From: an uncultured Candidatus Saccharibacteria bacterium | Lineage (GTDB): Bacteria; Patescibacteriota; Minisyncoccia; JAHISW01; Tagabacteraceae | Assembly: GCA_964601305.1 (NCBI GenBank) | Contig: CAZRMW010000001.1 | Location: 34,376-98,375, forward strand | Direction: 5' to 3' | Length of the DNA: 64,000 nt | Part shown: piece by piece, positions 2,974 to 64,000 of the stretch | How positions within the stretch are numbered: the stretch's first letter is position 1 | Layout: each line of letters starts with the position of its first letter | Notes under the pieces: generated by a model | Told to the model about the DNA's origin: nothing | Databases searched by the model: none | What the model saw: only the letters and a program-made list of their open reading frames with translations | Program-made: the position numbers and the translations under genes

Positions 2974-2992
2974 AGTGCCCAAAAAATTTACA

Positions 2993-3030
2993 ACACTCCA
3001 ACATTCTCAAGAATGTTGGAGTGTTTTTTT
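2993..3030. terminator. 32-bp palindrome ACACTCCAACATTCT..AGAATGTTGGAGTGT plus T-run; member of a repeated palindrome family (see 7401..7434)
   Basis: Perfect inverted repeat between convergent genes, followed by TTTTTTT. Confidence 0.6.
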
Positions 3031-3042
3031 ATGCAAAATAAG

Positions 3043-6000
3043 CTAAAACAACCCCTCCGGCGATGTGGTAGCTGTGTTTTCTATCCATTCAATAAGAGTT
3101 GCGGTGATAGCCGAAAGACCATCTCCAAGTACGCCGAGTAAATTGTTTTCAAAAGTAACATTACTTAAACTCGTCGTAGAATTTTCTACTACAACAGCTG
3201 CCTTCGTACCCCACGGCCCACTGTAGTTATGCTCTTCAAATCTCGCATTTTCTATACTCACATTTTCAGAATTTACAGCACGAATCCCATGAGGATAATT
3301 ATTTTTAAATAAAGCATTTGCTATCTGCGCTGTAGACCCTTCTAGCAAAATACCCGCTTTGTCTCTTCCTCCAGACATTACGCTCCCCGCATACTTCATA
3401 GTAAATCCACTTGCCACAAGAGATCCAGTTTCGGAAATATTTATCCCAGCAAACTGCCCAGCTTGAGGCATCGTAGATGTTTCATCGTTGTTAGAATCCC
3501 CACTTATCTCATCGTCATAAATACTTGTAAAAATTATGTCACTCGGATTCTGTCCATCTATTACAAAATTTCCGTTTACATTTAATGTTTTCTCTCCACC
3601 CTTTATTACCACTCCGTTTTCAATAGTTAATTGCGAAGATTCTACTACCGTCGGAGTCTCATATCCATTTAAATAATAAGGTATATCATTTGATTTTAAA
3701 GTTTTTGTTGAATTAGTATTAGTTAAATTTCCCCAAATATTAATGGAGTTGGGATTGTTATTTGACCCACTGTTTCCAGAAAAACTTCCCAGCTCTCCCG
3801 AGGAATAAATTGCACCTCCAGAATTAGAAGTAAAAGTATTGTTATTTGCGATTGTATTTGAATTGCTTAAATAAAGTCCTCTTAAATTTTCTAAAAAAGT
3901 ATTATTGTTTATTGTCGGCTCTCCATTTTCTGTGTATACACCATCAGCCTCATTGCCCTCAAAAACAGAGTTTGCAATTTGCGAATTAGAATTTTTTAAT
4001 CTCAAACCATAAACTTTTGAATATTTAAAACTGGAATTAGATACAGATATTTCTGGCCCCCAAGAGACAAGCAATGATTTATCAAAAGAGTTGTTATAAT
4101 ATTTTCCACCATAGCTAAAATTAGTATATTCAAAAATAGATCCATTTTCTGCATTTTCGTTTATGCAAATACCAAACCAATCTCCAGGATTAGGATTTTC
4201 TTGAGCACTCGTAAAAGCTATTGGCTCACTCTCTGTGCCTTGTGCCAAGATTTTTCCCAGAATATTAAACCCCGAATCTCCATTAAACTTAATTTCAACT
4301 CCAGGCTCTACGGTTAATAAAACTCCACTTTCAACAACTGCGTTTATATTGTCCACCAACACTGGATTGTTTAGTCTTCTTATTGTTAAATTTCTATCTA
4401 TATTTTTATTTATAGTTAGTATGCTATTTACACTATTTGCAAATTTCGGAGTACCTTTGTTTCCTAAAAAATCATTGTTTGTGTACCAGTTTTCTGTATC
4501 GTATCTTTCCATTGTATATTTATCTGTATCTCCTGCAGGCCACGCCCCCTCTGGTGTACTATCTATTGTTGTAGTAGCTGTCGAAGTAGCTTGCACCAAA
4601 ACTAATCTCTCTCCACTATTACTAAGCCCATTTCCAAAAGACCCTATATAATCTGCTTCCACATCTGGCACTGAGGTATCGTCCGTTCTTTCTATCAAAT
4701 AATACTCGCCCGACCCAAGAGTACCTGACAAATTTATATATGGTCCGTTGTCTGTTTCTGAAAAAAGTACCCAGCCATCCAAATCTATTCCGTTTTCTGT
4801 ATTATTAAAAAGTTCTATCCATTCATCGTAAGCCGAGTTGTCCGTACCCGCCCATGCGATTTCGTTTATTAAAATCGAATGCTCTGCAAAAACTTCTTCA
4901 GGTGTTTCAGGTGTCGTGCTTGCTGTTTCTGGTGTAGTCGTAGCAACTTCTGAAGTTGAATCTTCCTCTGGAAGTTCAACCTCGCTAATTGAGTCGTCTT
5001 CTATAACAGGCGCCTCCTGAGGATTGTTTGGGGAAGAAACACTTTTTGTTGCAACAACTATCGAGGTCGAACCTCTATAGCGAGGTTCAACCTCACTAAT
5101 TAAGTTGTTGTCTTTTGTGTCCGCCATTGTTTCCACAACTGCAAAAACAGCAGAAACCGCAGTATATTCTTTTTCCTGTTTTTGTGTAGCCCTTTGATTT
5201 GCTTGTTTTTCATCTTTTTCAAAGGTTGAATCTTTATCTTGAAAATTTAGCTTTGAAGTTGTACTTCCTTCAGGAAGTCCAACTTCGTTAATTAAATCAT
5301 TCGTTTGATCTTTTTTTTCTTTGTCAAAAACATCTTTAATTTTGTTGCCAACATTTTTTATTGCTCCCCAAAACCTTGAGCCACTACCCGGTAAAAAATC
5401 TTCTGCAATTGTTATGAGCGCTGTTTTAGGCACAGGCGGTTTTTCTAGTAACGATTCGTCGTTTCGAGCCTTCTCTACTTCTTGAAAGAATAAATTAATT
5501 GCCCCTGCCACGGATATGACTGCCTCACGAGATAAACGGTTCCAGTAGCCCTGGAGGATCGGTTTGTAATCTTCATTGTCGTCCTCCAACTCATACTCTG
5601 CCAACTTCTTTTCACCGTCTTTGTCCCATACCTCCTTTGTTCTTGCCAATTTAAAATAACTTCCATCTTTATCAACACCAAAGCCATATTCATCTCCATC
5701 TATTATTTCTGGCTTATTATACCTTTCATAGCCCTCGCCATTTGCAGTATCTTTACTTAAAAAATAATTATTAGAATAATTTGCTAAATAATCAAAATAT
5801 TCTTCTATGCTCTCAAGAGAAGCTGGCTCATAACTATTTAAGCTATCCGCAATTTTAAAATTTTCTATATTAAATTGTTTTGAAAAATTTTCAAGGGGGC
5901 TATCTCCAGGGTGTGGGTCATTTCTGGTGTGTTCTGGCACGGCCATATCTTCTAGTAAATGCAGAGTAAATCCAAGAGTATAAAACGCGTCTTTTTCATT

Positions 6001-6948: not shown

Positions 6949-7096
6949 AAATCTTGTCCGCCTCCGGCGGATTAATTAATAAAAACCTAGCAAGTATTAA
7001 CACAGTATGTCAACACCCGTCACTAATAATTTTATATTTCAATGTTCTAACCATTCCTCACACCCCACACAAAACATTCTAACATTCTATAGAATA

Positions 7097-7375
7097 TTAG
7101 AATGTTTTTATAAACTTCACAAATTTTTTACCATAAGGAGAAAGAAAATGCTCCACAGACCTACCTTTGTATTTTTTGTTTACAAGTCCAGCGAGCGTCA
7201 AACGCCTAGAATGCTGAGAGGCTGTTTTCATATGGCAATTAAGTTCATCTGAAATTTGATCTACCGTGATCCCTTCATTTTTATGAACCAAAAGCAATAT
7301 ATCAATCCTCCAATGATTAGCAGCGCCTTTAAAATGTCTTTCTAGTTGTTTTGATGTTTTTACTCTATTTTTCAT
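7097..7375 (-). CDS. winged-HTH transcriptional regulator (ArsR/SmtB-like)
   Basis: 92 aa; HTH segment ITVDQISDELNCHMKTASQHSRRLTLAGLV; flanked on both sides by related palindromes. Confidence 0.6.
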   Translation of the reverse strand: MKNRVKTSKQLERHFKGAANHWRIDILLLVHKNEGITVDQISDELNCHMKTASQHSRRLTLAGLVNKKYKGRSVEHFLSPYGKKFVKFIKTF

Positions 7376-7400
7376 GTTTTCATCCTACCACATCATATAA

Positions 7401-7434
7401 AATACTCCAACATTCTATAGAATGTTGGAGTATT
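7401..7434. promoter_or_regulatory. perfect 34-bp palindrome AATACTCCAACATTCTA|TAGAATGTTGGAGTATT, 26 nt upstream of the ArsR-like gene (candidate operator and/or terminator of the upstream gene)
   Basis: Perfect inverted repeat; near-identical to 2993..3024, with a degenerate nested copy at 7074..7106 overlapping the regulator stop codon. Confidence 0.45.
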
Positions 7435-7500
7435 TTAATTTGTTTAATCTGCGAAAAACAAAAAGCCGGTGGTAAAACCACCGACCCTATAATATATTTT

Positions 7501-13393: not shown

Positions 13394-13440
13394 AAGCTTA
13401 TTATATCACAAATTCAAACACTTTTGGTATATCTACACCA

Positions 13441-13467
13441 AAATAACGGAGTTGAACTCCGTTATTT
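13441..13467. terminator. palindromic hairpin AAATAACGGAGTTGAACTCCGTTATTT (repeated at 17431..17458)
   Basis: Perfect inverted repeat plus T-run downstream of the 13477..14673 gene; second copy 4 kb away. Confidence 0.5.
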
Positions 13468-13476
13468 TCTGTTATT

Positions 13477-16582: not shown

Positions 16583-16661
16583 CTAATATGGTGAAAATCA
16601 CCCGAGATTTCACCATATTAAACAAAAAATCGCCAGTTGAGCTTAGCCCAACTGGCGATTT
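16583..16661. repeat. conserved 54-nt hairpin repeat (ATATGGTGAAAATCACC..GAGATTTCACCATAT) followed by terminator hairpin; second copy at 17468..17548
   Basis: 54-nt stretch almost identical at both loci; each lies 3' of a small-membrane-protein gene, followed by a GC hairpin plus T-run. Confidence 0.5.
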
Positions 16662-17395: not shown

Positions 17396-17430
17396 TATAG
17401 CAGATGTCGTGTTCCATTTTTAAAATAACA

Positions 17431-17548
17431 AAATAACGGAGTTCAACTCCGTTATTTTAAATATTAGCTAATATGGTGAAAATCACCAGAGATTTCACCA
17501 TATTAAACAAAAAACCGCCAGGCCTTTTCAGGTTCTGGTGGTTTAAAT
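17431..17548. repeat. composite of three hairpins: AAATAACGGAGTTCAACTCCGTTATTT palindrome, conserved 54-nt ATATGGTGAAA hairpin, and terminator
   Basis: Repeat copies of 13441..13467 and 16583..16636; T-runs on both strands. Confidence 0.45.
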
Positions 17549-21236: not shown

Positions 21237-21263
21237 TAGCTTTATATTACCAAAACCCCCACT

Positions 21264-21301
21264 TTTTGCAAAATAAAAAGCCACCCTGTCGCTAGAGCGG
21301 C
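21264..21301. repeat. 40-bp direct repeat TTTTTGCAAAATAAAAAGCCACCCTGTCGCYAGAGYGGC (second copy 22342..22381), terminator-like
   Basis: About 38/40 identical copies flanking a 1.1-kb segment containing one gene. Confidence 0.55.
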
Positions 21302-21336
21302 TTTTTAAATACTAAGTACGCAGAAAGTATGATTGT

Positions 21337-22002: not shown

Positions 22003-22399
22003 TTTTCATTCCTTTTTGTGTTGTTATGTTGTGAAAGTCCGAATAGCTTCCATAAAAAAACTACCATTAAAATATATATTTTGTCAAATTACTGTACTAG
22101 AAGGGTACATAAATAACACTTATCGCTACACCGAAGACCGTCTTCGATGTAAATTACATAGACACCATTTCTTTTATTTTCATCAAATCAGCCACAGACC
22201 AACTTTTTAAAAATTTTTCATACTCTCTTTTGCTTTTAAATTGATCTAAAATAATATCTGTTCCAGAAAGTATCCAATCTTCATAATCTTTGTATAGAAA
22301 ATGTTTGATTCTACATCGACATCGGGTGTCGACGCAAGTGGTTTTTGCAAAATAAAAAGCCACCCTGTCGCCAGAGTGGCCATATAAACCAAAAACTTA

Positions 22400-34074: not shown

Positions 34075-34422
34075 ATGAACGAAAAAAATTTTGAAAGATA
34101 TTGTCCAAAATGCAACAAAAAAGCTGAAAAGTGCAATCAATCCATTTTTAGAGTAATTAGCTGGTTCAGCACAGTAAAAAGAATTGATATAATCTATTTT
34201 CTTTGCAGTAATTGTCGATTAGTTTATATAGACAAAAGTATTGTTTTAAAAATTATAAGTGATTTTAGAAGATCTTTGAGAAAAGACCAGAGAAAGAAAC
34301 TTTCCCACCTAGAGACGTACCAGAGAATTTTAAAAACACTAGAAAAAGATATTTCAGAATTTAGAGTAAATCGTCTTGGATATAGAAAAGTAGATCGTTT
34401 CAACAAAAAGCCTAGCAAATGA
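34075..34422 (+). CDS. hypothetical Cys-rich (Zn-ribbon-like) basic protein
   Basis: 115-aa ORF with CPKC...C and CSNC; opposite strand to its neighbours. Confidence 0.3.
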   Translation: MNEKNFERYCPKCNKKAEKCNQSIFRVISWFSTVKRIDIIYFLCSNCRLVYIDKSIVLKIISDFRRSLRKDQRKKLSHLETYQRILKTLEKDISEFRVNRLGYRKVDRFNKKPSK

Positions 34423-39507: not shown

Positions 39508-40725
39508 TTATCTCACAGAAGAAATTCCTTTTAATTTTAAAATAATATCTGGCAAAATTTTTAATACATAGTCTACTTCTTTTTTTGTAGTCTCTTTGCC
39601 CATCGTAAATCTAAGCGAACCATGAGCATATTCATGTCCCATACCAATCGCACGTATCACGTGTGAAGGCTCCAAACTATCCGAAGTACACGCCGAGCCC
39701 GTAGAGCAAGCCACGCCCTTAGCATCAAGATATAGCACCATTGCTTCTCCCTCCACACCACGTACAGATATATTTACATTATTAGGAAGCCTATCTTCTC
39801 TTGAACCATTTAAAACACTGTTTGGTATCGTTTTTAATAATTTATCTATAAAATAATCCCTAATTCCAATAAGTCTTTTTGATTCTTTTTCTTTATTTTT
39901 TTGAACTAATTCAAGCGCTTCTCCAAAACCCACAATTCCAGATACATTTTCCGTACCAGACCTTAAGCCCATTTCTTGCCCACCGCCTACGACCATCGGA
40001 TCTATTTTAATTCCTCTTTTTTTATAGAGCATTCCTACACCCTTTGGCCCATATATTTTAGAACCATTTAAAGTCATTAAGTCTACACCCAATTTCAAAA
40101 CATTTAGATCCAAATAAGCCGGTGCTTGCACAGCATCTGTATGTATCAGTGGAGTTTGCAGGTTGTAGGTTGTAGGTTGTAGGCTTTTTTTGAAATTTCT
40201 GATTATTTTTGCGATTTCACGAATTGGCTGTATAGCACCAATTTCATTGTTTGCATACATTATAGAAACCAAAACAGTCTCTTTTCTTAAAGATTCCTTT
40301 AATTGTTTCAAATCTACAATGCCATTTTTATCTACATTTAAATAAGTAATTTCCCAGCCACTTTTTTCTAATCTTTCACAAGCATGAAGCACAGCGTGAT
40401 GCTCTATTTTTGACGTAATAATATGCTTGACACCCTCTCTGTTGGAAGTCGGACTTCCAACAGAATTGGCTATGCCGAAAATTGCTAAATTATCACTCTC
40501 TGTGCCACCGCCAGTAAAAATAATCTCGTCTGAATGGGCGTTTATTGTCTGTGCCACTTTTAATCTAGCCTCCGAAATTGCTTTTTTGGCTTCCCTGCCT
40601 TCTTCATAAATAGAAGATGGATTGCCAAAAACATCGCTAAAAAACGACTCCATTGCTTTTTTAACTTTTGGATCTAAATATGTGGTAGCTGAATGATCTA
40701 AATATATCCTTTTATCTTTATTCAT
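39508..40725 (-). CDS. iscS: cysteine desulfurase (class V aminotransferase, IscS/NifS)
   Basis: YLDHSATT, LNGSKIYGPKGVGMLY (PLP-Lys), SGSACTS (catalytic Cys loop); start at MNKDKRIY (40725). The upstream 33 codons of the track ORF are a repeat element. Confidence 0.85.
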   Translation of the reverse strand: MNKDKRIYLDHSATTYLDPKVKKAMESFFSDVFGNPSSIYEEGREAKKAISEARLKVAQTINAHSDEIIFTGGGTESDNLAIFGIANSVGSPTSNREGVKHIITSKIEHHAVLHACERLEKSGWEITYLNVDKNGIVDLKQLKESLRKETVLVSIMYANNEIGAIQPIREIAKIIRNFKKSLQPTTYNLQTPLIHTDAVQAPAYLDLNVLKLGVDLMTLNGSKIYGPKGVGMLYKKRGIKIDPMVVGGGQEMGLRSGTENVSGIVGFGEALELVQKNKEKESKRLIGIRDYFIDKLLKTIPNSVLNGSREDRLPNNVNISVRGVEGEAMVLYLDAKGVACSTGSACTSDSLEPSHVIRAIGMGHEYAHGSLRFTMGKETTKKEVDYVLKILPDIILKLKGISSVR

Positions 40726-40761
40726 AAAAAAATTATACGATTTTTTTGCATTATTGGCAAA

Positions 40762-40790
40762 CAAAAAAGCCCTGTGCAAGCAGAGCTTTT
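40762..40790. terminator. hairpin AAAAAAGC-cctgtgcaagcag-AGCTTTTT
   Basis: A/T-flanked stem between iscS start region and the end of the thioredoxin-fold gene. Confidence 0.35.
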
Positions 40791-40816
40791 TGAGTAAGTT
40801 TGAGCGAGGTCCAACC

Positions 40817-41410
40817 TCACTCATTTAAAATTTTGTCGATTAGAGCGGCCGTTTTATCGACAGTTTTAACCGGATTATTATAAAAATTATACCGCACAAC
40901 CCCCTTTTTGTCGACAATGACAAGGTGGGGCCAACCTCCTAACCCATACGAAGCTGTCGCCTTTATAACTCCAGACCCATGTTGTTTTTTGCTAACAATC
41001 AAGACCGTCGATAAAAAAGGTCCAAACTTTGTCTTAAACCCTTCAAACTCTTGAGGGTTTTTTGATGTCCACGGCACGCCCACAACTTTCACATCCTCGC
41101 GCGACTCATACTTTTCCGCCAGTTTATTCAGAACTTTGACCTGCTCACGGCAGAGAGGCGCACCAGGTCACCAGAAAGCCAAAACAGTAACACTCCCTTT
41201 AGAAAACTCGGAGAATTTCACATTGTCTCCGGTATCAATATTGGTTGCCGTAAAATCCGGCGCCATTTTGTCCACTGCGGAATTTGTTTCAACAACAACC
41301 ACCGGAGTGTCCTCTTCCACGGAAGTATTGAAGGCACCTGCTGTGCCAACAAAAAGAAGTGAGAAAATCGCCATCGCCAGAATCGTTAGAGTTAAAAGTC
41401 TCGTTTTCAT
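40817..41410 (-). pseudogene. disrupted thioredoxin-fold (TlpA/AhpC-TSA-like) secreted protein gene, GC-rich
   Basis: N-terminal part (signal peptide ...APDFTATNIDTGDNVKFSEFSKGSVTVLAFW) stops at an in-frame TGA exactly where the redox motif is expected (FW-TGA-PGAPLCREQ). C-terminal part (VKVVGVPW...GWPHLVIVDKKGVV) is in another ORF. GC content clearly above its neighbours. Confidence 0.5.
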
Positions 41411-41470
41411 CGCTCTTCTCCTTGTATTGTTTAGGTTTTGTAAAATAAATCTCTATCCCTAGATAAGCAT

Positions 41471-42121
41471 TTAAAAATACTCTTGTAAATAGCACTTTCT
41501 ATGAACATCCAAAATACCATTTTTCTTTATTGCTTCGTAATGTTTTTTTGTACCATATCCTTTGTGGCAGTCGAAACAATATTCTGGATAAATTTTGTGT
41601 AGTTTTTTCATTTTTCTATCTCTTTTTACTTTCGCCATTATTGAAGCAGCAGAAATAATAGAAATTTTTTCATCTCCCTTTATAACTGTTTTTTGATTAT
41701 AATGTTTCGGCGCCTTTAACCCTCCGTCTAATAAAACTAAACAATTTTGCGTCGACATCGGGTGTCGATGTAGATGTAGTTTTCGCAAAGCGTGATTTAA
41801 TGCTAGTTTTGTAGCTTTTTGTATACCAATTTTGTCTATAACTTTTGGACCCACCATTGCCACGCTATAGCTAAAATTATTTTTTATTATTTCAAACCAA
41901 TCTTCTCTTTTTTTTTCAGAAAGCTTTTTAGAGTCTTTTATACCTTTCAAAAATTGAAAATTGAGTTTTGAAAATTTATTGAAAATTGAAAATTGAAAAT
42001 TAGAAATTGTTGTTGCAACAGCAGCAACTGCCACCGGTCCGGCCAGTGGCCCTCTCCCCGCCTCGTCTATTCCAACAATAATGCATTCTTTTTTATCCTT
42101 CATATTCTTCATTAACTTCAT
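41471..42121 (-). CDS. rnhB: ribonuclease HII
   Basis: GIDEAGRGPLAGPV, DSKKLS, ASIMAK motifs; contains two apparent in-frame DNA-repeat insertions. Confidence 0.85.
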   Translation of the reverse strand: MKLMKNMKDKKECIIVGIDEAGRGPLAGPVAVAAVATTISNFQFSIFNKFSKLNFQFLKGIKDSKKLSEKKREDWFEIIKNNFSYSVAMVGPKVIDKIGIQKATKLALNHALRKLHLHRHPMSTQNCLVLLDGGLKAPKHYNQKTVIKGDEKISIISAASIMAKVKRDRKMKKLHKIYPEYCFDCHKGYGTKKHYEAIKKNGILDVHRKCYLQEYF

Positions 42122-42262
42122 ATTACCATTTTAGATAAATTATCCAAAAATCATCGACCGCATAAAATTGGATAGTTTTTAAAAACAAAAACATCATACA
42201 TCCTTGGCGATAGCACTAGATATATGATGTTTAAGATAGACAAAACAAAACAGAAAAAAGCA

Positions 42263-42308
42263 GAGCCCTCGTAAGAGGGCTCTTTTTGTTTTGTTCCGCT
42301 GGAGCGGA
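42263..42308. terminator. two GC hairpins (AGAGCCCTCgtaaGAGGGCTCT with A/T flanks; GTTCCGCTGGAGCGGAAC)
   Basis: Perfect stems immediately 3' of the GC-rich minus-strand gene. Confidence 0.5.
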
Positions 42309-42315
42309 ACAGTGA

Positions 42316-42696
42316 TCAACATCCGTTGCGTGCAACCGGTCGGTAGACGGCGATATTCCGCAGAGATCCGATGGCGTCCATGTAAGACCAATGCCGGGAT
42401 CTGACGATGTCGTATAAATTGAGTTTACGGGTGGCGCTGGCAATGTTCATCCGGAACTTTCCATTATAGTAGATGACGGCAGTGGCCAGCAGAGCAAGGG
42501 TGAAGATGGCAGCCGCGACGACCACGATCAGTGGCAGCGCCGGTCCGAAGGTTATGGTGGTAAGACTCGAAAAACTTTTCAGCATGGTGCCGATGACGCC
42601 GACGCTCGCAGTGGCCGATGCCGTCATCGCCGTGATGGTAACTCCAACTACGAGGGCAACAATGAGCCCTATGAGAAATACGGCAAATCTGTTCAT
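42316..42696 (-). CDS. GC-rich small membrane protein (2-3 TM), likely horizontally acquired
   Basis: 126-aa ORF; Ala/Val/Thr-rich TM helices; region 42190..42720 much GC-richer than the flanks. Confidence 0.5.
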   Translation of the reverse strand: MNRFAVFLIGLIVALVVGVTITAMTASATASVGVIGTMLKSFSSLTTITFGPALPLIVVVAAAIFTLALLATAVIYYNGKFRMNIASATRKLNLYDIVRSRHWSYMDAIGSLRNIAVYRPVARNGC

Positions 42697-42847
42697 AACA
42701 TCCTCCTTTTGTGCCTATTTAAAGGCTTTTTGTGGGAAAATCCCGTTTCAAACTTATATTTGGTTTTTAAACCTGATATTTAGTATACTCTTATACAAAA
42801 CATTGTCAACCCCGTCATTCGACGAGGCGAAGCCTCTTTGTGGATAA

Positions 42848-44608
42848 TTATTTGAGCTTCTCTATCTCTTTGCTAAGATATTTCTTCATTTTTACTACAG
42901 TGCTTTTCAACCCTTTTAGAGAATTATTTATCATTTCTTTGTCTTCAGATTTAAATTTTTGTTTTTTCAAACTCTTTTCTAAATCTTCCATATCGTTTTC
43001 CATAAGTTTGCTCAGTTTTTTTATATCTCTTCCAACAATTATTTTATATGCGCTCCTTTTCTCTTTTTCAGAAACATAATACCAAGCCACAAAAGATCCA
43101 ACAGAAGAAAAAATTAAAACTAAAATAATAACTATCTCAAACCACCCGAAATCCACAACACCCAAAGAAATTATTGTTTTTGCTGTAATTTTAAAAGATA
43201 TTGGCTCTGTATTGTAGCTTACGCCACCCCTATCGTCTCTTGATGAAATCAAAAACTTATATTCTCCCCCCTGAAACGGCTCTTCTATTACAACTTCCCA
43301 ATTGCCAACCTTATTGCTCTCTGAAAAAGTAGTAAAAATTATCTGATCATCTTTTAAAATCTTTACATCCACAAACCCATTTGGAACAGCCTTTCCAGAA
43401 GCAAACAAAAACTCGCCTCCAGAAACTTTTTTTGTTATAAAATCTACTACCGGTTTTTCAAGAGGAATTATTTCAAACTTAATGTCATCTTCCACGCTGT
43501 TTCCTGCCTTATCGAAAACACGCACCACTAAATCGTGCTCCCCTGGAGATTGAGGAGGCAACAACAAAAACTCATCTGTAGATTCTACCGCCTCTTTTCC
43601 ATCAATAAAAATCAAAGCGTGAGAATAACCAGAAAGACTATCTTGTGTTTTAAACTCTATCTCGGGGACAGGATTGTCGCTAACAAACGAACTGATTTGC
43701 GTTTCAAAAGGGAGAGGTGAAGTTGTGTCTATGGCAATTTTATAATGAGTCACCTCTCCCCAACCTTTATTGTTTTTAAATTGTACATGTACATAGTGTA
43801 TTCCTTCACTCAAAACTCCTATATTTTTACCTGTAAAAAGTTCTTCTTCGGAAGTGGTAGGCTCTGACGACACTTTTGCGTTTACCTCTACTGCAACTTT
43901 TATTACATCTTCAGGAACATCCCACAAAACTATTGTATTTCCTTGGTGGTTGTACCATTTCCCATGCTCAGGATAAAAAGGAACTCTAACAACCGGAGCC
44001 TCGGGCGCATCTACTGCTTTTACAGCTACTCGTTCAACTCTTTGCGGAAGCTCTTCTTTTTCAACCTCTTGCGGAACAAAAGGGATTTCAGCTTCTATAG
44101 TTTTTGCGCCAATTTTTATTTTTGTGCCTGCCATTTCAGAAAGCACATTTGTGCCTTTTCCATCGTTTGCAGTAACCACAGATTCATCAAAAGAAATGTT
44201 TGCAACACCAGTACCAACAACCTTGAAGTTTATTCTAACAATTTGAAGTGCCCCACCAGAGACACCCTTTGCAGTGCCCCCGATAAAACTTACTCGCCCC
44301 AGCTCATTGTTTATTTCTGGTTCGTCTATCCAAAAATTAAAAACAGAACTATTTTTATCTGTACTAACAACCTCTAAAATATTGTTCGAAAAATTTACTG
44401 TAGACTGAACCGCATTTATAAAAACATCGCTTGTATCTACTTTTACATCTACAGAAAATTCCTGTCCACGCGCAAAAGTCTTCCCTTCTGGAAGCAAATA
44501 AAGAGTAGATGCATTAGCAGAAGGCGCAAACGCCAGAATAAAGAATAAAGAATAAAGAATAAAGTTGCTTAACTTTAAAATATTCATAATTCGTGATTCA
44601 TAATTCAT
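42848..44608 (-). CDS. type-I membrane-anchored surface protein with N-terminal cohesin-like domain and Ig-like middle region
   Basis: Signal peptide; GQEFSVDVKVDTSDVFINAVQSTVNFSNNILEVVS...VRINFKVVGTGVANISF resembles cohesin; C-terminal TM plus basic tail; N-terminus paralogous to 58607..59602. Confidence 0.55.
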   Translation of the reverse strand: MNYESRIMNILKLSNFILYSLFFILAFAPSANASTLYLLPEGKTFARGQEFSVDVKVDTSDVFINAVQSTVNFSNNILEVVSTDKNSSVFNFWIDEPEINNELGRVSFIGGTAKGVSGGALQIVRINFKVVGTGVANISFDESVVTANDGKGTNVLSEMAGTKIKIGAKTIEAEIPFVPQEVEKEELPQRVERVAVKAVDAPEAPVVRVPFYPEHGKWYNHQGNTIVLWDVPEDVIKVAVEVNAKVSSEPTTSEEELFTGKNIGVLSEGIHYVHVQFKNNKGWGEVTHYKIAIDTTSPLPFETQISSFVSDNPVPEIEFKTQDSLSGYSHALIFIDGKEAVESTDEFLLLPPQSPGEHDLVVRVFDKAGNSVEDDIKFEIIPLEKPVVDFITKKVSGGEFLFASGKAVPNGFVDVKILKDDQIIFTTFSESNKVGNWEVVIEEPFQGGEYKFLISSRDDRGGVSYNTEPISFKITAKTIISLGVVDFGWFEIVIILVLIFSSVGSFVAWYYVSEKEKRSAYKIIVGRDIKKLSKLMENDMEDLEKSLKKQKFKSEDKEMINNSLKGLKSTVVKMKKYLSKEIEKLK

Positions 44609-44626
44609 AATTCTTTTGTATTAAAA

Positions 44627-46099
44627 TTAAATTTTTATGTTTTTTAAAAATATACTAAAATCTATAATATCTATTTTACCATTACCGTCTAAATCTATTT
44701 CTCTTCTAAGCGATTTTTCTTTAGACCCCCATCTAAACAAAAACATACTCCAATCTACAACATTTATAGAATTGTCTTTGTTAAAATCTGCTTTAGGAAA
44801 ACTTAGAGACGACACTCTAAAAGAACGCGGAAAAGAAAAACCACTATCTTTTCCTTCTTTGTTTGTTTGACCAACACGAACTTGAAAATCCCCTGCCCCC
44901 AAATTGCTTGGATTTAAAATAAATTCATAATAACCATTATTATTAGCTTTTGTTTCTTCTTTTATTATATCACCTACCTCTATTTTTACTGCACTTCCTG
45001 CTGTGGAATACCCAAATATTTTTATATTTTTGTCTAGTGTAAAAATACCGTTACCAAAATTTATTGTTGGTGGGAAAAGGATATCTCTAGCTACTAAACT
45101 TTTTTCAGAATTAAAATCTACATTAAATGACATTGACCCAGTTTTTTGTCCCATTTTATCTATAGCCCTAATACTAAAAAAGTATCTGCCTGTAAGAAAA
45201 GCTGTGTAAGATATATTAAACTCTCCGCTACTTGATATATTGTATGTACTAAGTGGTACATTTCTATATACATCGCTAACATCATCTCTAAATAAAACCT
45301 CCACTTCGCTTCTTGGAAAAGCTTTGCCAGAAAAAAGAACTCTTGTGGGAGCCACCCCTCCACCCGTAGGAGTAGATATGCTTGGTTGCCCACCAGATCC
45401 ATTTGTGACTGTAGTAGCCTCACTTGGCACATTAGATAAACTTGAAGTGTTTGGAACTTCGTCGGATACTTTAATAGCAAAGTAATAAGTAGTATTTGCA
45501 CTAAGCCCGGAAACTGTCATACTCTCAGAGCTTCCCGCCACACTTGGTGTGGGCTCTCCTGTGACCTGTGTTGCATTATTAAAATCTGTGTCGTTTGTGA
45601 TGTTTGAGGTTGAATAACGAACATCGTAAGTTGTGGTAGTTCCCGAACCAGCGTCATCGCCTGGTGCTGTCCACGAGAGATTTATGGAAGTTTGGGTAGC
45701 CCCTAAAGCGGTTAAATTATTCACCGCCGACGGTGCTGTAGTATCAGAAGGCGGAGTTGTATATGTAAAACCACCAACTAAAGTTCCCGATTTACCATCT
45801 GATGTACGAGTATAAACAACATCCTGTGCCCCAGCTGTGCCACTAGGAGTTGTCGCTGTCATCTCTGTGCTACTTACAATAATAAGATTTGTTACTGACC
45901 CCCCACCAATAGTCAGCGTTCCTGCTGCAAAACCTGTCCCACCGATAGTTACATCGATCCCTCCCGCCGTTGAACCAGAAGTGGGAGAAATAGAATTAAC
46001 ACTTGGTGCTGGTGCAGCAAAGACACTCCCTGTACTTAAAAAATAGAGGAATAAAAAAACTACTAAAAATTTTAATGAGTGCCCACAAAAATATCTCAT
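44627..46099 (-). CDS. secreted protein with IPT/TIG, fibronectin-III-like and C-terminal dockerin-like domains
   Basis: Signal peptide; GGIDVTIGGTGF (IPT); TSINLSWTAPGDDAGSGTTTTYDVRY (FN3); DFNKDNSINVVDWSMF...DLDGNGKIDIIDFSIF (paired dockerin Ca-binding repeats). Confidence 0.6.
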   Translation of the reverse strand: MRYFCGHSLKFLVVFLFLYFLSTGSVFAAPAPSVNSISPTSGSTAGGIDVTIGGTGFAAGTLTIGGGSVTNLIIVSSTEMTATTPSGTAGAQDVVYTRTSDGKSGTLVGGFTYTTPPSDTTAPSAVNNLTALGATQTSINLSWTAPGDDAGSGTTTTYDVRYSTSNITNDTDFNNATQVTGEPTPSVAGSSESMTVSGLSANTTYYFAIKVSDEVPNTSSLSNVPSEATTVTNGSGGQPSISTPTGGGVAPTRVLFSGKAFPRSEVEVLFRDDVSDVYRNVPLSTYNISSSGEFNISYTAFLTGRYFFSIRAIDKMGQKTGSMSFNVDFNSEKSLVARDILFPPTINFGNGIFTLDKNIKIFGYSTAGSAVKIEVGDIIKEETKANNNGYYEFILNPSNLGAGDFQVRVGQTNKEGKDSGFSFPRSFRVSSLSFPKADFNKDNSINVVDWSMFLFRWGSKEKSLRREIDLDGNGKIDIIDFSIFLKNIKI

Positions 46100-58626: not shown

Positions 58627-59602
58627 TGTTTCTTTTTATGTTCCAAAAGTACAAACTCGCAACGACTATAAAAATCAAAACAAGCAAAACATAGACATAC
58701 CAAGTTTCTACTATTTTCCTCTTCTCAATAATTTCAAAACTAACCTTAAACTCGTCTTCTACATTCACATTGTAAAGTGTTTTTACAACAAGCGTATATC
58801 TACCTAACGGCAAATCAAGATCCTTAAACCTTTCTATCAAAACTCCTTCGGTTTCTACCACTATTTGATCCTTTTGGCTATGAACTATTTCTCCGGTTTT
58901 ATTTACAATATTAAATGTTAAATCAACGGGAGTTGGCACTCTTCCAAAACTTATAAATATTACTCTCGAAATCAAATCTTTTATGTTAGTTATTGATACT
59001 TTGTCTATTTCAAGATTGATATCAAAAAGTTGTTCTGGTATTTCTTCTGTCTCTGTCTCTGCAGTTTCTGCTGGAGCTTCAGCCCTCACAACAGGCACTA
59101 TTGTAACATAAGTTTGTACAGATTTTTTATCATAAACATTGTTATTTTGGATATCCAAAACAAAAGTACTGCCATCTACTTCTATAATTCCTTCTCCAGT
59201 TTTTTTAGCTCTAAAAGTAGCCGTGCCAAAAGCAGTGCCAGAAGAAACGCCCCTTGGGTAGCCCCCCGTTTTTATTAAAATCCCTTCATTATTATTTATA
59301 AGATCATATCCTGGTTGTTTTAAAGAGACCCAACTATCATTCATTTTGAAAGAGTTGACTTCTAAAAGATCTGGCGGGTAATTTAACTCTATTTTTGTCG
59401 TATAGTTGTTCACTCCAGCTGGGTTTATGCCGACCATAAGCTCAAATTGCTCTCCTTCAACAACATTTATATTTACTGGACTTAAAAAAACAGAAGTATC
59501 GGCTAATACGTCTGGAATTAAGAACAAAGTATAAAGAATTAAGCAGACAACAACAAAAGACGTCCGCAAAAAAACATTCTTAATTCGTGATTCATAAATC
59601 AT
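58607..59602 (-). CDS. cohesin-like domain protein with conserved C-terminal module and TM anchor
   Basis: N-terminus MIYESRIKN paralogous to 42848..44608; cohesin-like GEQFELMVGINPAGVNNYTTKIELNYPPDLLEV; C-terminal IPEQLFDINLEID module. Confidence 0.5.
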   Translation of the reverse strand: MIYESRIKNVFLRTSFVVVCLILYTLFLIPDVLADTSVFLSPVNINVVEGEQFELMVGINPAGVNNYTTKIELNYPPDLLEVNSFKMNDSWVSLKQPGYDLINNNEGILIKTGGYPRGVSSGTAFGTATFRAKKTGEGIIEVDGSTFVLDIQNNNVYDKKSVQTYVTIVPVVRAEAPAETAETETEEIPEQLFDINLEIDKVSITNIKDLISRVIFISFGRVPTPVDLTFNIVNKTGEIVHSQKDQIVVETEGVLIERFKDLDLPLGRYTLVVKTLYNVNVEDEFKVSFEIIEKRKIVETWYVYVLLVLIFIVVASLYFWNIKRNNGTKKK

Positions 59603-59614
59603 AATTCTTTTTTA

Positions 59615-60094
59615 CTAATTTTGATTATTAACTACCACAGGCCCTACATTTACAATAATGTCTCTCTCTGGACTGTACAAAATTGCTTGTTGTTTTTGTA
59701 GATAAATTAACACCTTATCGCCATCAATTGAGCCATGATAAAACGGTTGCTCATTTATAAGTGTCTGTGCGTCTACGATAGTAGCCACACTAGGCAACTC
59801 GTTTTCTGGTAAAACAAAATGTTCTCTCACTTGTTTTACAACCTTTTCAATTTCCTCTTGTTGTTGTTTTTGTTTTTCTACTTCAATTTTTTCTGCAGAA
59901 GTTTCGGTGGCACCAGTAAAGGTAAGGTAAGCGCAAACAAAACCAAAAACAGCCAATATTAGCAGGAGAATAAAAACAACTTTTTTCTTTTTACCATTAG
60001 AATCAGGTTTTCCTGAAAATTGTTCTTGTAATTCTTGATCATTAAATTCCCTTAATTCTTCTATTTCTTTTTCTCCTTTTGTTTTTCTAGGCAT
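59615..60094 (-). CDS. membrane-anchored protein with 'QPFY...SPERDIIVNVGPV' domain
   Basis: Paralogous C-terminal domain to the middle region of 62218..62997. Confidence 0.45.
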   Translation of the reverse strand: MPRKTKGEKEIEELREFNDQELQEQFSGKPDSNGKKKKVVFILLLILAVFGFVCAYLTFTGATETSAEKIEVEKQKQQQEEIEKVVKQVREHFVLPENELPSVATIVDAQTLINEQPFYHGSIDGDKVLIYLQKQQAILYSPERDIIVNVGPVVVNNQN

Positions 60095-63005: not shown

Positions 63006-64000
63006 TTATATTGTTTCTGGAGTTGTTGTAGAAACTGGTTCCTCAACAACATGCTCTTCGTATTCGCAACTTAGATCATCTTCTGTTGCGCTTTCATCGT
63101 GATTTAAGGCATCTGGATCCATACAGCCCAAAATCAGCTCGGGTTCTTGCTCCTGAATTAATTCAGCCTGCCCCGTTAAATCCGTAGGATTCTTCGGGGT
63201 ATTTAATTCAGTAGCAGTAGTCGTGGAGGTCGTTCCTTCAATTAACGAAGTTGGACTTCCCACATCCTGCGGTGTGTGAACTCCAACTTCAACAATTCTT
63301 GTTGTTGTCCCTACATTCCCCGCTTGATCTTCAGCAATAAAAGTAATTACATAAGTAGTTGTGCTAGAAGTATCTAAGCTTAATTCGTTCGGATACATCT
63401 CTTCTCCACCATCAATGCTTACTTTATACCCAAGGTTGTCGTTTACATTGTCTGTTACTGTTGCCCCCATATCGCTATATGTGCTACCTACTTCTATTTT
63501 TGCAGGGTTATTTCCAAGGAGAATTATGATTGGAGACTCAACGTCAACACTGTCTGTATTTTCATTGATTATTGATTCATTAGATATTGATTGATCATTG
63601 ATTGTTGAAGATTGATCATTTTTAAGCATTCCCTTCAACTCTGCCAATTCCTCTTTATTCAAACAAACTTCTCCACCCTCTTCCCCAATACATATTTCTT
63701 CTCTAGCCAAAATTCTATTAGCTACAAAAGCTCCGTTTAATTCTTGATTTGTTATAAATTCTTCCACTGATCCACCAAGAGAAAGCGAGTTTAATTCATT
63801 TTGAAGAACTTCTATCATCTCCTGTTGCTCTTTTATAGCCTCTAAGTTAAGGGCTGTTAATTTTTGATAATCTATCATCTTATATCCTTGCATATCCTCA
63901 TAAACCAATTCTGGGAAAAGCACTTCCACTTCCTGGGCAATCAAACCTGTTTGGCGACCATCCCCTAAAAATTCTGTGTGAGAATTTGTTTTATCCCATT
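63006..64000 (-). CDS. surface protein (5' end outside window) containing a phage tail-fibre/endosialidase-type intramolecular chaperone (peptidase S74-like) segment followed by a DUF5011/Ig-like domain
   Basis: GLIAQEVEVLFPELVYEDMQGYKMIDYQKLTALNLEAIKEQQEMIEVLQNEL matches the S74 chaperone helices; PIIILLGNNPAKIEVGSTYSDMGATVTDNVNDNLGYKV...AEDQAGNVGTTTRIVEV is DUF5011-like. The reading frame stays open upstream of the track's start to the window edge. Confidence 0.5.
   Translation of the reverse strand, partial: WDKTNSHTEFLGDGRQTGLIAQEVEVLFPELVYEDMQGYKMIDYQKLTALNLEAIKEQQEMIEVLQNELNSLSLGGSVEEFITNQELNGAFVANRILAREEICIGEEGGEVCLNKEELAELKGMLKNDQSSTINDQSISNESIINENTDSVDVESPIIILLGNNPAKIEVGSTYSDMGATVTDNVNDNLGYKVSIDGGEEMYPNELSLDTSSTTTYVITFIAEDQAGNVGTTTRIVEVGVHTPQDVGSPTSLIEGTTSTTTATELNTPKNPTDLTGQAELIQEQEPELILGCMDPDALNHDESATEDDLSCEYEEHVVEEPVSTTTPETI

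Follow-up and report, generated by a model that had tools for sequence, protein, structure and literature searches.

A translated heptanucleotide repeat and an in-frame hairpin in variable loops of RNase HII from an uncultured Patescibacteriota bacterium

The DNA considered here, called the window throughout, is a 64-kb stretch (64,000 nt) of contig CAZRMW010000001.1 (assembly GCA_964601305.1, forward-strand positions 34,376 to 98,375) from an uncultured bacterium of the Patescibacteriota. The gene in question is rnhB, which encodes RNase HII and carries two in-frame segments of repeat sequence, a heptanucleotide tract in loop 1 and a 27-nt quasi-palindrome in loop 2 of the enzyme. The window has a GC content of about 35% and a GC skew that is negative throughout, with most genes on the minus strand, and the nearest homologues of its RNase HII and IscS proteins bear annotations of Patescibacteria or Candidatus Tagabacteria. 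Independent metagenome assemblies (JGI, ENA and Logan) contain the same DNA, with 99.3–100% identity in each retrieved locus, so the repeat features described below are not assembly artefacts. These loci were retrieved by look-up of the rnhB product in two start versions (3 and 7 contigs) and of a neighbouring 126-aa gene (13 contigs), the latter chosen to avoid conditioning on identity of the rnhB protein; the three sets overlap. Together with extra flanks of 10 kb (left) and 4.5 kb (right), the known sequence amounts to about 78 kb. The features discussed are collected in Table 1.

Table 1. Coordinates of rnhB and of the repeat features of the window (TRF, Tandem Repeats Finder; ORF, open reading frame)
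Feature	Position	Strand	Product or location	Evidence
rnhB, RNase HII, 216 aa	41471..42121	minus		PF01351, structure match, conserved motifs
Translated heptanucleotide repeat (AATTTTC)n, coding strand	41950..42009	minus	rnhB loop 1	TRF period 7, 9.0 copies, 69% matches
Quasi-palindrome A, 27 nt, TTGCGTCGACA-TCGGG-TGTCGATGTAG	41747..41773	plus	fills rnhB codons 117-125 exactly	
Twin B, TTGCGTCGACA-CCCGA-TGTCGATGTAG, inverted relative to A	22311..22337	minus	spacer after terminator 22358-22381	
Perfect palindrome in iscS, 27 nt, 12-bp stem, 3-nt loop	40438..40464	minus	encodes SVGSPTSNR	sequence, 9WEP alignment
(CCTACAA)x4 in iscS	40156..40183	minus	encodes LQPTTYNLQ	TRF 4.0 copies, 95% matches
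(TTATTCT)x4.3	44535..44564	minus	signal peptide of 586-aa Big_13 protein (42848-44608)	TRF 4.3 copies, 100% matches
Imperfect (TATGAAT)n	44582..44613	minus	over start codon of 586-aa Big_13 gene	TRF 4.6 copies, 84% matches; lag score 13
Decayed heptamer-derived tract	63564..63620	minus	312-aa ORF, encodes NDQSSTINDQ	TRF period 7, 7.4 copies, 68% matches

The rnhB product, for which gene callers also give a 210-aa version starting at 42103, carries the PF01351 family match (precomputed) and aligned with the solved RNase HII of T. maritima, 3O3G, with E=2.8e-34 (phmmer). Its AlphaFold2 model (predicted local distance difference test score, pLDDT, 86.6) was matched by Foldseek to 3O3F and 7UWE, the T. 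maritima and E. coli enzymes, with template modelling (TM) scores of 0.71–0.74. Residues D19, E20, G22-R23-G24, S64-K65, D132 and D150 were invariant in an alignment of 44 sequences from the candidate phyla radiation (CPR), and D63 was present in at least 90% of them. Family profile, solved members, catalytic acids and the GRG and DSK motifs all agree in assigning the product to RNase HII, and from sequence and model the gene looks intact and functional. In the same alignment both repeat segments fall in loops whose length varies among homologues. The first-pass annotation, made from the letters alone, had read these segments and a third one in iscS as insertions to be placed by alignment with solved structures; such alignment bears it out, the rnhB segments being insertions of 17 aa (loop 1) and about 7 aa (loop 2) relative to 3O3G and the iscS tract an insertion relative to 9WEP.

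Loop 1, counted from GRGPL to DSK, spans 36 residues in the window enzyme. Among 80 other RNase HII loci from metagenomes it has exactly 21 residues in 56 and 22–36 residues in the 24 that are CPR-like. The heptamer tract encodes about residues 38–57, ISNFQFSIFNKFSKLNFQF, in the interval between GRGPL and DSKKLS, with a perfect core at 41978–42001 that amounts to 3.4 perfect units; it is a 7-nt tandem unit translated inside an ORF, an arrangement of the type known from neuO (see below). The earlier proposal that a (GAAAATT)n repeat encodes an insert between the GIDEAGRGPL motif and DSKKLS was thus confirmed by TRF, by translation and by the alignment to 3O3G.

Tandem repeats were listed with TRF and also scored by self-match at lags 2–24, the latter against shuffles that preserve dinucleotides. 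With the score set at 13 or more, the 64 kb contained just three tandem repeats, the period-7 tracts of rnhB, iscS and the signal peptide, and shuffles gave about 0 tracts at every lag. Lowering the score to at least 10 added a fourth period-7 tract and left the remaining periods at background, so that 7 is the sole tandem-repeat period above shuffle expectation in the window. The tracts are individually too short to repeat in the protein, so that what repeats is the DNA. The iscS tract, with 3.4 perfect units, had been described in the first-pass annotation as a similar in-frame expansion, and TRF, translation and its position as an insertion relative to PDB 9WEP agree with that description. 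For the signal-peptide tract the same annotation was right about the repeat and wrong about a recent gain of 21 nt, since the corresponding tract of a paralogue at about 59.5 kb is just as long but decayed, from which it follows that the tract is not a recent expansion. The peptide NDQSSTINDQ of the 312-aa ORF can likewise be derived by translation of a 7-nt repeat. No further period-7 tract was found in the 14.5 kb of extra flank. The start regions of two paralogous surface-protein genes (44577–44635 and 59571–59629, family D12) are 83% identical, and both carry the (TATGAAT)n tract with several ATGs.

These controls bear on the plainest alternative, that the segments are ordinary lineage-specific loops whose repetitive look arises by chance in an AT-rich genome. 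Both sites are indeed variable in every CPR homologue and the genome has about 35% GC, but dinucleotide shuffles produced about 0 tracts at any period and an expectation of 0.00 for the 27-mer described below, heptamer-derived stretches occurred in 0/600 shuffled proteins, and only period 7 shows an excess. This explanation is highly improbable, being effectively refuted by the shuffle controls.

In loop 2, quasi-palindrome A is read in frame as CTA CAT CGA CAC CCG ATG TCG ACG CAA, that is, L117–Q125 (LHRHPMSTQ), just before the LLDG strand, at a position where RNase HII homologues have from 4 to about 16 residues; the insert sequence is absent from all 43 aligned RNase HII homologues. An exact 17-mer, TCGACATCGGGTGTCGA, is shared between 41752–41768 and 22316–22332, where shuffles predict 0.03 such pairs even if up to 3 mismatches are allowed, and the pattern TTGCGTCGACA-N5-TGTCGATGTAG is matched with 0 mismatches both at A on the plus strand and at B on the minus strand (0.00 expected). 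All 22 of 22 arm bases are identical between A and B, while the 5-nt loops, TCGGG and CCCGA, are mutually reverse complementary, so that the loop alone appears "direct". The arms depart from complementarity at three positions, all of them G.T pairs on one strand only and common to both copies. Arm identity that includes these three positions indicates that A and B have one origin. The simplest reading of the two sequences is that this single origin was followed by placement in opposite orientation, with the loop inverted between perfectly complementary inner stems. The first-pass annotation had the hairpin sequence of rnhB recurring near 22314–22352; the shared sequence and an adjoining motif stand, and the direct orientation it implied does not, as the pair is inverted. 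That motif, GTTTT(C/T)GCAAA at 41779–41789 and 22341–22351, encodes the conserved ALRK in rnhB and therefore predates the insert.

Copy B lies 20 nt after an intrinsic terminator. One gene caller alone places it inside a 69-aa ORF, which has no Pfam match and a GTG start within the T-run of the terminator; judging from these features the site is probably non-coding, as had been claimed for the second hairpin copy. [quoted passage not shown] Repetitive extragenic palindromic (REP) elements are numerous imperfect palindromes outside genes, marked by a conserved tetranucleotide of the GTAG type and accompanied by a REP-associated tyrosine transposase (RAYT) gene. The rnhB palindrome is imperfect, with G.T pairs, and GTAG lies on its 3' side; one of its copies is intragenic and the copy number is low. 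The element is a hairpin in itself, and no target-site duplication is present on both sides of A, only a single CTACAT doublet at one edge. Derivation of B from a duplicated rnhB fragment was rejected, as there is no similarity beyond the 27 nt and a short TTTGCRAAAAC motif. Around B there are two copies, in direct orientation and 89% identical, of a 47-nt terminator module made up of a hairpin and TTTTTATTTTGCAAAA, at 21263–21309 and 22342–22388; they flank a 221-aa gene, a small ORF and hairpin B, the second copy lying just upstream of serS.

As RNA, the plus strand of A (antisense to rnhB) is predicted to form a hairpin that includes three G.U pairs, with an energy of -16.4 kcal/mol (z -4.1), and the sense strand reaches -7.3; for B the values are -13.3 kcal/mol (z -4.5) on the minus strand and -8.5 on the plus strand. 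We consider it unlikely that the quasi-palindrome is a functional nucleic-acid element, be it an RNA hairpin (antisense in rnhB, in a 5' leader at B), a protein operator, or two recombination sites in inverted orientation with 19.4 kb between them. Mismatches that remain G.T-compatible on one strand only and in both copies, z-scores of about -4 to -4.5 for the strand with the complete stem, and the inverted placement of A and B, the latter between a terminator and the next gene, would all suit such an element; but the shared mismatches follow simply from copying, and the well-paired strand is antisense at A, with no plus-strand gene nearby. Moreover, no U-tract follows A on the plus strand or B on the minus strand, the terminator scan reporting only the neighbouring hairpin at 22358–22381, and in Rfam searches only tRNAs reached threshold, nothing near A or B coming close. 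The idea that excision or inversion takes place between A and B, recombination that would yield two perfect palindromes, was rejected as well, because inversion would truncate rnhB at RHPMSTQVVFAK* (read from sequence) and every retrieved contig covering A or B keeps the junctions of the window.

Further copies of the 27-mer were absent from the 14.5 kb of extra flank, leaving two in about 78 kb, and the insert is absent from the aligned orthologues. A viral scan gave 0 matches, as did a metagenome scan with the 20-base arm pattern, which also missed the source contigs carrying the element and is therefore of little weight. A scan of a genome collection with the 17-mer was uninformative, returning at least 115 chance matches in GC-rich genomes, with the source genome not among the matches listed. 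One of these matches (locus L061), whose flanks keep the G.T pairs and one compensating pair, was set aside as not significant, about 0.2 such cases being expected among 115 chance matches.

The palindrome of rnhB is not the only hairpin read in frame. The perfect palindrome of iscS is a 5-aa insertion relative to 9WEP in a loop that is hypervariable among IscS homologues, and its peptide VGSPTS recurs in P0190. It belongs to a family of 13-nt GRRGTYSRACYTC palindromes with 10 sites in the window (4971, 5063, 5082, 5274, 18162, 26663, 31357, 40445, 40806 and 63247) where 0.02 are expected, seven of them inside long ORFs and three intergenic. In ORFs the element reads SEVEP or VGSPTS according to orientation, its hosts including a 1136-aa protein, the C-terminal tail of ParB, iscS and the 312-aa ORF, and other CPR loci almost entirely lack the family. 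Loop 2 of a distant RNase HII gene (L130, 2505–2545) has two palindromes, one of which contains, without any difference, the 15-mer GGAAGTCCGACTTCC of the window's iscS.

Presence and absence of such inserts could be compared directly between closely related rnhB alleles. Two near-identical alleles from one project, L217 (1042–1095) and L218, differ by a 54-nt in-frame insert in loop 1, which at its 3' end repeats the left flank in inverted orientation (16-bp stem); the insert also contains a AAAATTTGC-GAA-GCAAATTTT hairpin, a mini-hairpin of the GCGAAGC type. L221 and L222, which belong to one cluster with 90% identity or more, differ at about 80 nt into the gene by the 21-nt GC-rich hairpin CCCGCCTGCCGGACGGGCAGG (PPAGRAG), placed within a (CAATTTC)n tract, and a 30-nt GC-rich hairpin in loop 1 of L159 is missing from L167. 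All hairpin inserts seen were multiples of 3 nt and free of stops, as would be expected if selection filters a process that is itself blind to frame. Going by these alleles, the copying of hairpins into the genes of relatives is an ongoing process.

Relatives have heptamer repeats as well. Across the CPR-like loci with long loops, 203 kb in all, 11 of 21 tandem tracts had period 7, five of them in loop 1 of rnhB, with units ACAAGTA, ATACYAA, GATACYA, AAAATKA and CAAWTYC; in loci with the canonical loop the rate of period-7 tracts was about 5x lower. As these DNA loci had been gathered around rnhB, the enrichment in loop 1 carries an ascertainment bias from which a scan of proteins is free. In that scan, a heptamer-derived peptide was defined as a stretch of at least 10 aa translatable from some heptanucleotide repeat with at most 1 mismatch. 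Such peptides occurred in 20 of 120 RNase HII homologues (about 1 in 6), 18 of them in loop 1 and at least one in loop 2, and in 11 of 120 IscS homologues, where 11/11 lay within the loop that holds the (CCTACAA)n tract in the window. Shuffled proteins gave none in 600, for RNase HII and IscS alike.

The window tract, written as (CAATTTT)n, occupies the place that (CAATTTC)n has in the P0062 clade, at about 56% protein identity, and the unit-wide C/T difference between them hits all three codon positions, one Ser/Pro change included. The (ATACTAG)n tract of L159 and the (ATACYAA)n tract of L167 show a parallel pattern. The peptide ISNFQF, itself heptamer-derived, is found in RNase HII orthologues of about 56% identity too. 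From these comparisons the loop-1 tract is a case of concerted evolution of a DNA repeat and not of peptide conservation. A tract shared by position and still periodic must be old, and would need continuing slippage over evolutionary time.

The same observations make it unlikely, to about the same degree as for a functional hairpin, that the inserts were selected for what they do in RNase HII, for instance as an amphipathic loop-1 helix in contact with a partner or the membrane, with periodicity a by-product of AT-rich codons. In favour of such protein-level adaptation, the AlphaFold2 model has a helix at loop-1 residues 41–50 (pLDDT ~77–81), ISNFQF is kept in several clades, and the loops of CPR RNase HII systematically exceed the canonical 21 aa. 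Against this, the units of different lineages are wholly different (NYKLQIT, KFKIQNS, NTKYQIL, QVTSNKS), change between clades follows the DNA unit over all codon positions, non-synonymous changes included, loop length ranges over 22–36 aa with presence or absence of inserts polymorphic within populations, and like tracts are found in IscS, a signal peptide and an rRNA gene.

Whether the tracts could switch genes was raised by the first-pass annotation, which called the expansions tolerated or possibly phase-variable. No indel was found at any repeat in any retrieved assembly locus; as these assemblies are consensus sequences and two of the look-ups accepted identical proteins only, rare variants would have escaped notice. 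Nor did two homologue clusters aligned at 90% identity or above contain length variants of +/-7 nt, their internal length variants being hairpin inserts. None of the tracts is long and uninterrupted, with 3.4 (rnhB), 3.4 (iscS) and 4.3 (signal peptide) perfect units. The suggestion of phase variation finds no support in these data, while tolerance fits them well, the inserts lying in length-variable loops of an intact gene. The annotation had further held that invariant length together with the same insert in distant orthologues would point to ordinary loops: the length is invariant in the assemblies and ISNFQF does occur in the orthologues of about 56% identity, whereas the hairpin insert is absent from the aligned orthologues. 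Two Logan contigs that end at 42057–42059 were discarded as signs of repeat variation, since they stop 50 nt away inside the conserved stretch coding for DEAGRGPLAG and are uninformative.

A proven switch of this kind is neuO of E. coli K1, carried by phage CUS-3, in which a translated 5'-AAGACTC-3' heptamer of 3–53 units varies among strains and unit numbers divisible by 3 leave the gene on (PMC13001214). By analogy, the tracts of rnhB, iscS and the surface protein might be contingency loci, kept because gain or loss of one unit switches the gene reversibly. Besides this precedent, periodicity maintained at one loop across orthologues of 56–62% identity, which requires continuing slippage, a perfect tract at 44535–44564 where that of the paralogue has decayed, and one heptamer tract that spans a start codon speak for the idea. 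It is nevertheless quite unlikely: no tract indel was seen in the retrieved loci (3, 7 and 13 contigs), no out-of-frame allele in any homologue cluster examined, the tracts have 3.4–4.3 perfect units compared with 3–53 in neuO, and the targets are housekeeping enzymes. As far as the sequences tell, an on/off switch by the heptamer tracts is unlikely.

Taken together, we consider it probable that rnhB encodes a working RNase HII in which two variable surface loops have each absorbed an insertion at the DNA level, and that both insertions persist as tolerated passengers, neither of them a switch. For loop 1, we infer that replication slippage most likely created the heptanucleotide microsatellite and maintains its periodicity, while selection would pass only in-frame outcomes, which would give a 7-nt repeat in the DNA without a repeat in the protein. 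Its position and near-identical unit, common to related Parcubacteria, suggest an old tract under concerted evolution. For loop 2, the 27-nt quasi-palindrome would be an inverted, loop-flipped copy of spacer sequence found between genes at a distance of 19.4 kb, that direction of copying being the one we favour, and it probably arrived as a short hairpin copied in by template switching, by templated repair or as a very small palindromic element.

Several points weigh against this account. Slippage by a single unit would frameshift the gene, and the build-up of in-frame tracts was not observed here. The helix modelled with fair confidence at residues 41–50 sits uneasily with neutrality, and the enrichment of loop 1 among related loci is partly ascertainment. 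At A the strand that forms the whole stem runs antisense to rnhB, and at B it is sense to the neighbouring genes, an asymmetry that could, on the folding predictions, have a meaning at the RNA level, and a 27-mer known in just two copies is compatible with a repeat family or with a functional site. Four of the five heptamer tracts of the ~78 kb fall within 4.5 kb, a clustering that this account does not explain. Finally, the IscS of locus L223, 59% identical to that of the window, has the unit AACCTAC at the site of the window tract, with about 24 nt identical and flanks diverged, and a second tract, (AACCTAN)x5, in its other variable loop. Simple local slippage followed by neutral drift explains the L223 tract poorly, and it hints at constraint, transfer or the seeding of preformed repeats.

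The first of these L223 tracts is (AACCTAC)x4.7, at 747–779. The same unit is found as (AACCTAC)x2.7 at 4568–4586 of L061, inside the 23S rRNA gene of an unrelated genome; this gene is 3871 nt long, about 950 nt beyond the bacterial model length. Another heptamer, AGTGAGG/CCTCACT, is present in both orientations at several mostly intergenic sites of L160 and L201 (not CPR-like, GC 45%, canonical RNase HII loop), and resembles the dispersed heptamer repeats of cyanobacterial type.

The AACCTAC unit at the homologous IscS site, the tract in a second IscS loop and the one in the 23S rRNA gene of an unrelated genome lend some weight to a further reading, which we regard as doubtful: that Parcubacteria possess a process, dedicated to the task or strongly biased, by which heptamers are seeded and maintained and small GC-rich hairpins inserted at specific permissive loops of conserved genes, the tracts possibly serving as reversible switches of low rate. 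Candidates for it may be a polymerase of replication or repair that slips in a 7-nt register, or an activity that makes templated insertions. If true, the tracts in rnhB, iscS and elsewhere would be long-lived "coding microsatellites", possibly switching repair and Fe-S functions.

The surroundings of rnhB have further peculiarities. The 4.5 kb at 40156–44613 group four heptamer tracts, both in-frame hairpins and a frameshifted thioredoxin-like gene. The latter (AhpC/TSA-type, 40817–41410, minus strand) has an in-frame TGA at 41168–41170 where CxxC is expected; TWCAS can be read in another frame over 15 nt, suggesting a -1/+1 frameshift pair, and the sequence is one and the same in all assemblies, where gene callers split it into ORFs of 80 aa and 88–91 aa. 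Selenocysteine or ribosome hopping at this TGA was set aside in favour of the compensated frameshift pair. The 438-aa call for iscS (40725–40824 region) is probably 33 codons too long at its start, a MNKDK start at 40725 being backed by a promoter-like TTGCAA-N17-TATAAT site and by alignment to solved structures. Elsewhere in the window, near-identical long intergenic hairpins (families D3, D8, D13 and D14) lie at 2992–3025, 7071–7108, 7398–7437, 13440–13468, 17430–17458, 16583–16636 and 17468–17521, and are probably terminators reused across the region.

Taken by itself, rnhB is an ordinary case and mainly a point of annotation: the low-complexity stretches in RNase HII and IscS are real, translated and tolerated, and are neither frameshifts nor assembly errors. 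The broader pattern is a useful lead. It suggests that two indel processes, 7-nt slippage and the copying-in of short hairpins, shape the proteins of reduced CPR genomes, repeatedly at the same permissive loops, with hairpin inserts still polymorphic in natural populations. Such a system bears on the preference of bacteria for period 7, on how frame-breaking repeats survive in genes and on the origin of new loop sequences.

Heptanucleotide repeats have been reported as the most over-represented class of long simple sequence repeats (SSRs) in many bacteria, with polymerase slippage as the proposed cause and a slippage register of about 7 nt as one proposed idea (PMC4692102, PMC4679880). Examples given there include GGGNATC in Xanthomonas and Nostoc, TAACTGA in Beggiatoaceae and cyanobacteria, and the heptamers of Calothrix (Mrazek et al. 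2007 via PMC4692102, PMC4679880), and coding tracts are reported to favour unit lengths in multiples of three (PMC4679880). Like these SSRs, the window shows an excess specific to period 7, lineage-specific units, and one unit at several sites and in unrelated taxa; they are mainly intergenic, whereas the window tracts are translated, lie in set loops of housekeeping enzymes and persist across deep divergence. With neuO, rnhB shares a heptamer in coding sequence that gives a peptide with a period of 7 aa, the frame surviving only with a fitting copy number. The neuO tract has 3–53 perfect units at the 5' end and is variable and a proven switch, in contrast to an rnhB tract that is internal, interrupted, limited to 3.4 perfect units and invariant in assemblies.

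For the hairpins, RPEs offer the closest precedent of in-frame palindromic elements, at about 150 bp (PMC10969869). RPEs and intragenic MITEs resemble the window in that their palindromes are both intergenic and in frame in unrelated metabolic genes, at positions tolerated by the fold (PMC10969869). They differ in that RPEs have tens of copies and a conserved peptide, whereas the inserts here measure 21–54 nt and show neither terminal repeats nor duplicated targets, the element in rnhB being known from only two copies. Template-switch (quasi-palindrome) mutagenesis and hairpin-loop inversion are mutational mechanisms and not an element family; they fit the 54-nt insert of L217, with its inverted copy of the flank, and the loop inversion between the identical arms of A and B, and by themselves these mechanisms leave the second copy 19 kb away unexplained. 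The GC clusters of yeast mitochondria are short GC-rich palindromes in an AT-rich genome, sometimes coding and polymorphic among strains, whose mobility is tied to target motifs; they are organellar, and no such motif was identified for the window inserts. A literature search found nothing linking CPR bacteria to heptamer or microsatellite repeats, although its coverage was incomplete and the result is weak evidence of novelty. Heptamer repeats and in-frame palindromes are thus already known kinds of sequence, and it is their recurrence at fixed enzyme loops across CPR that appears to be undescribed.

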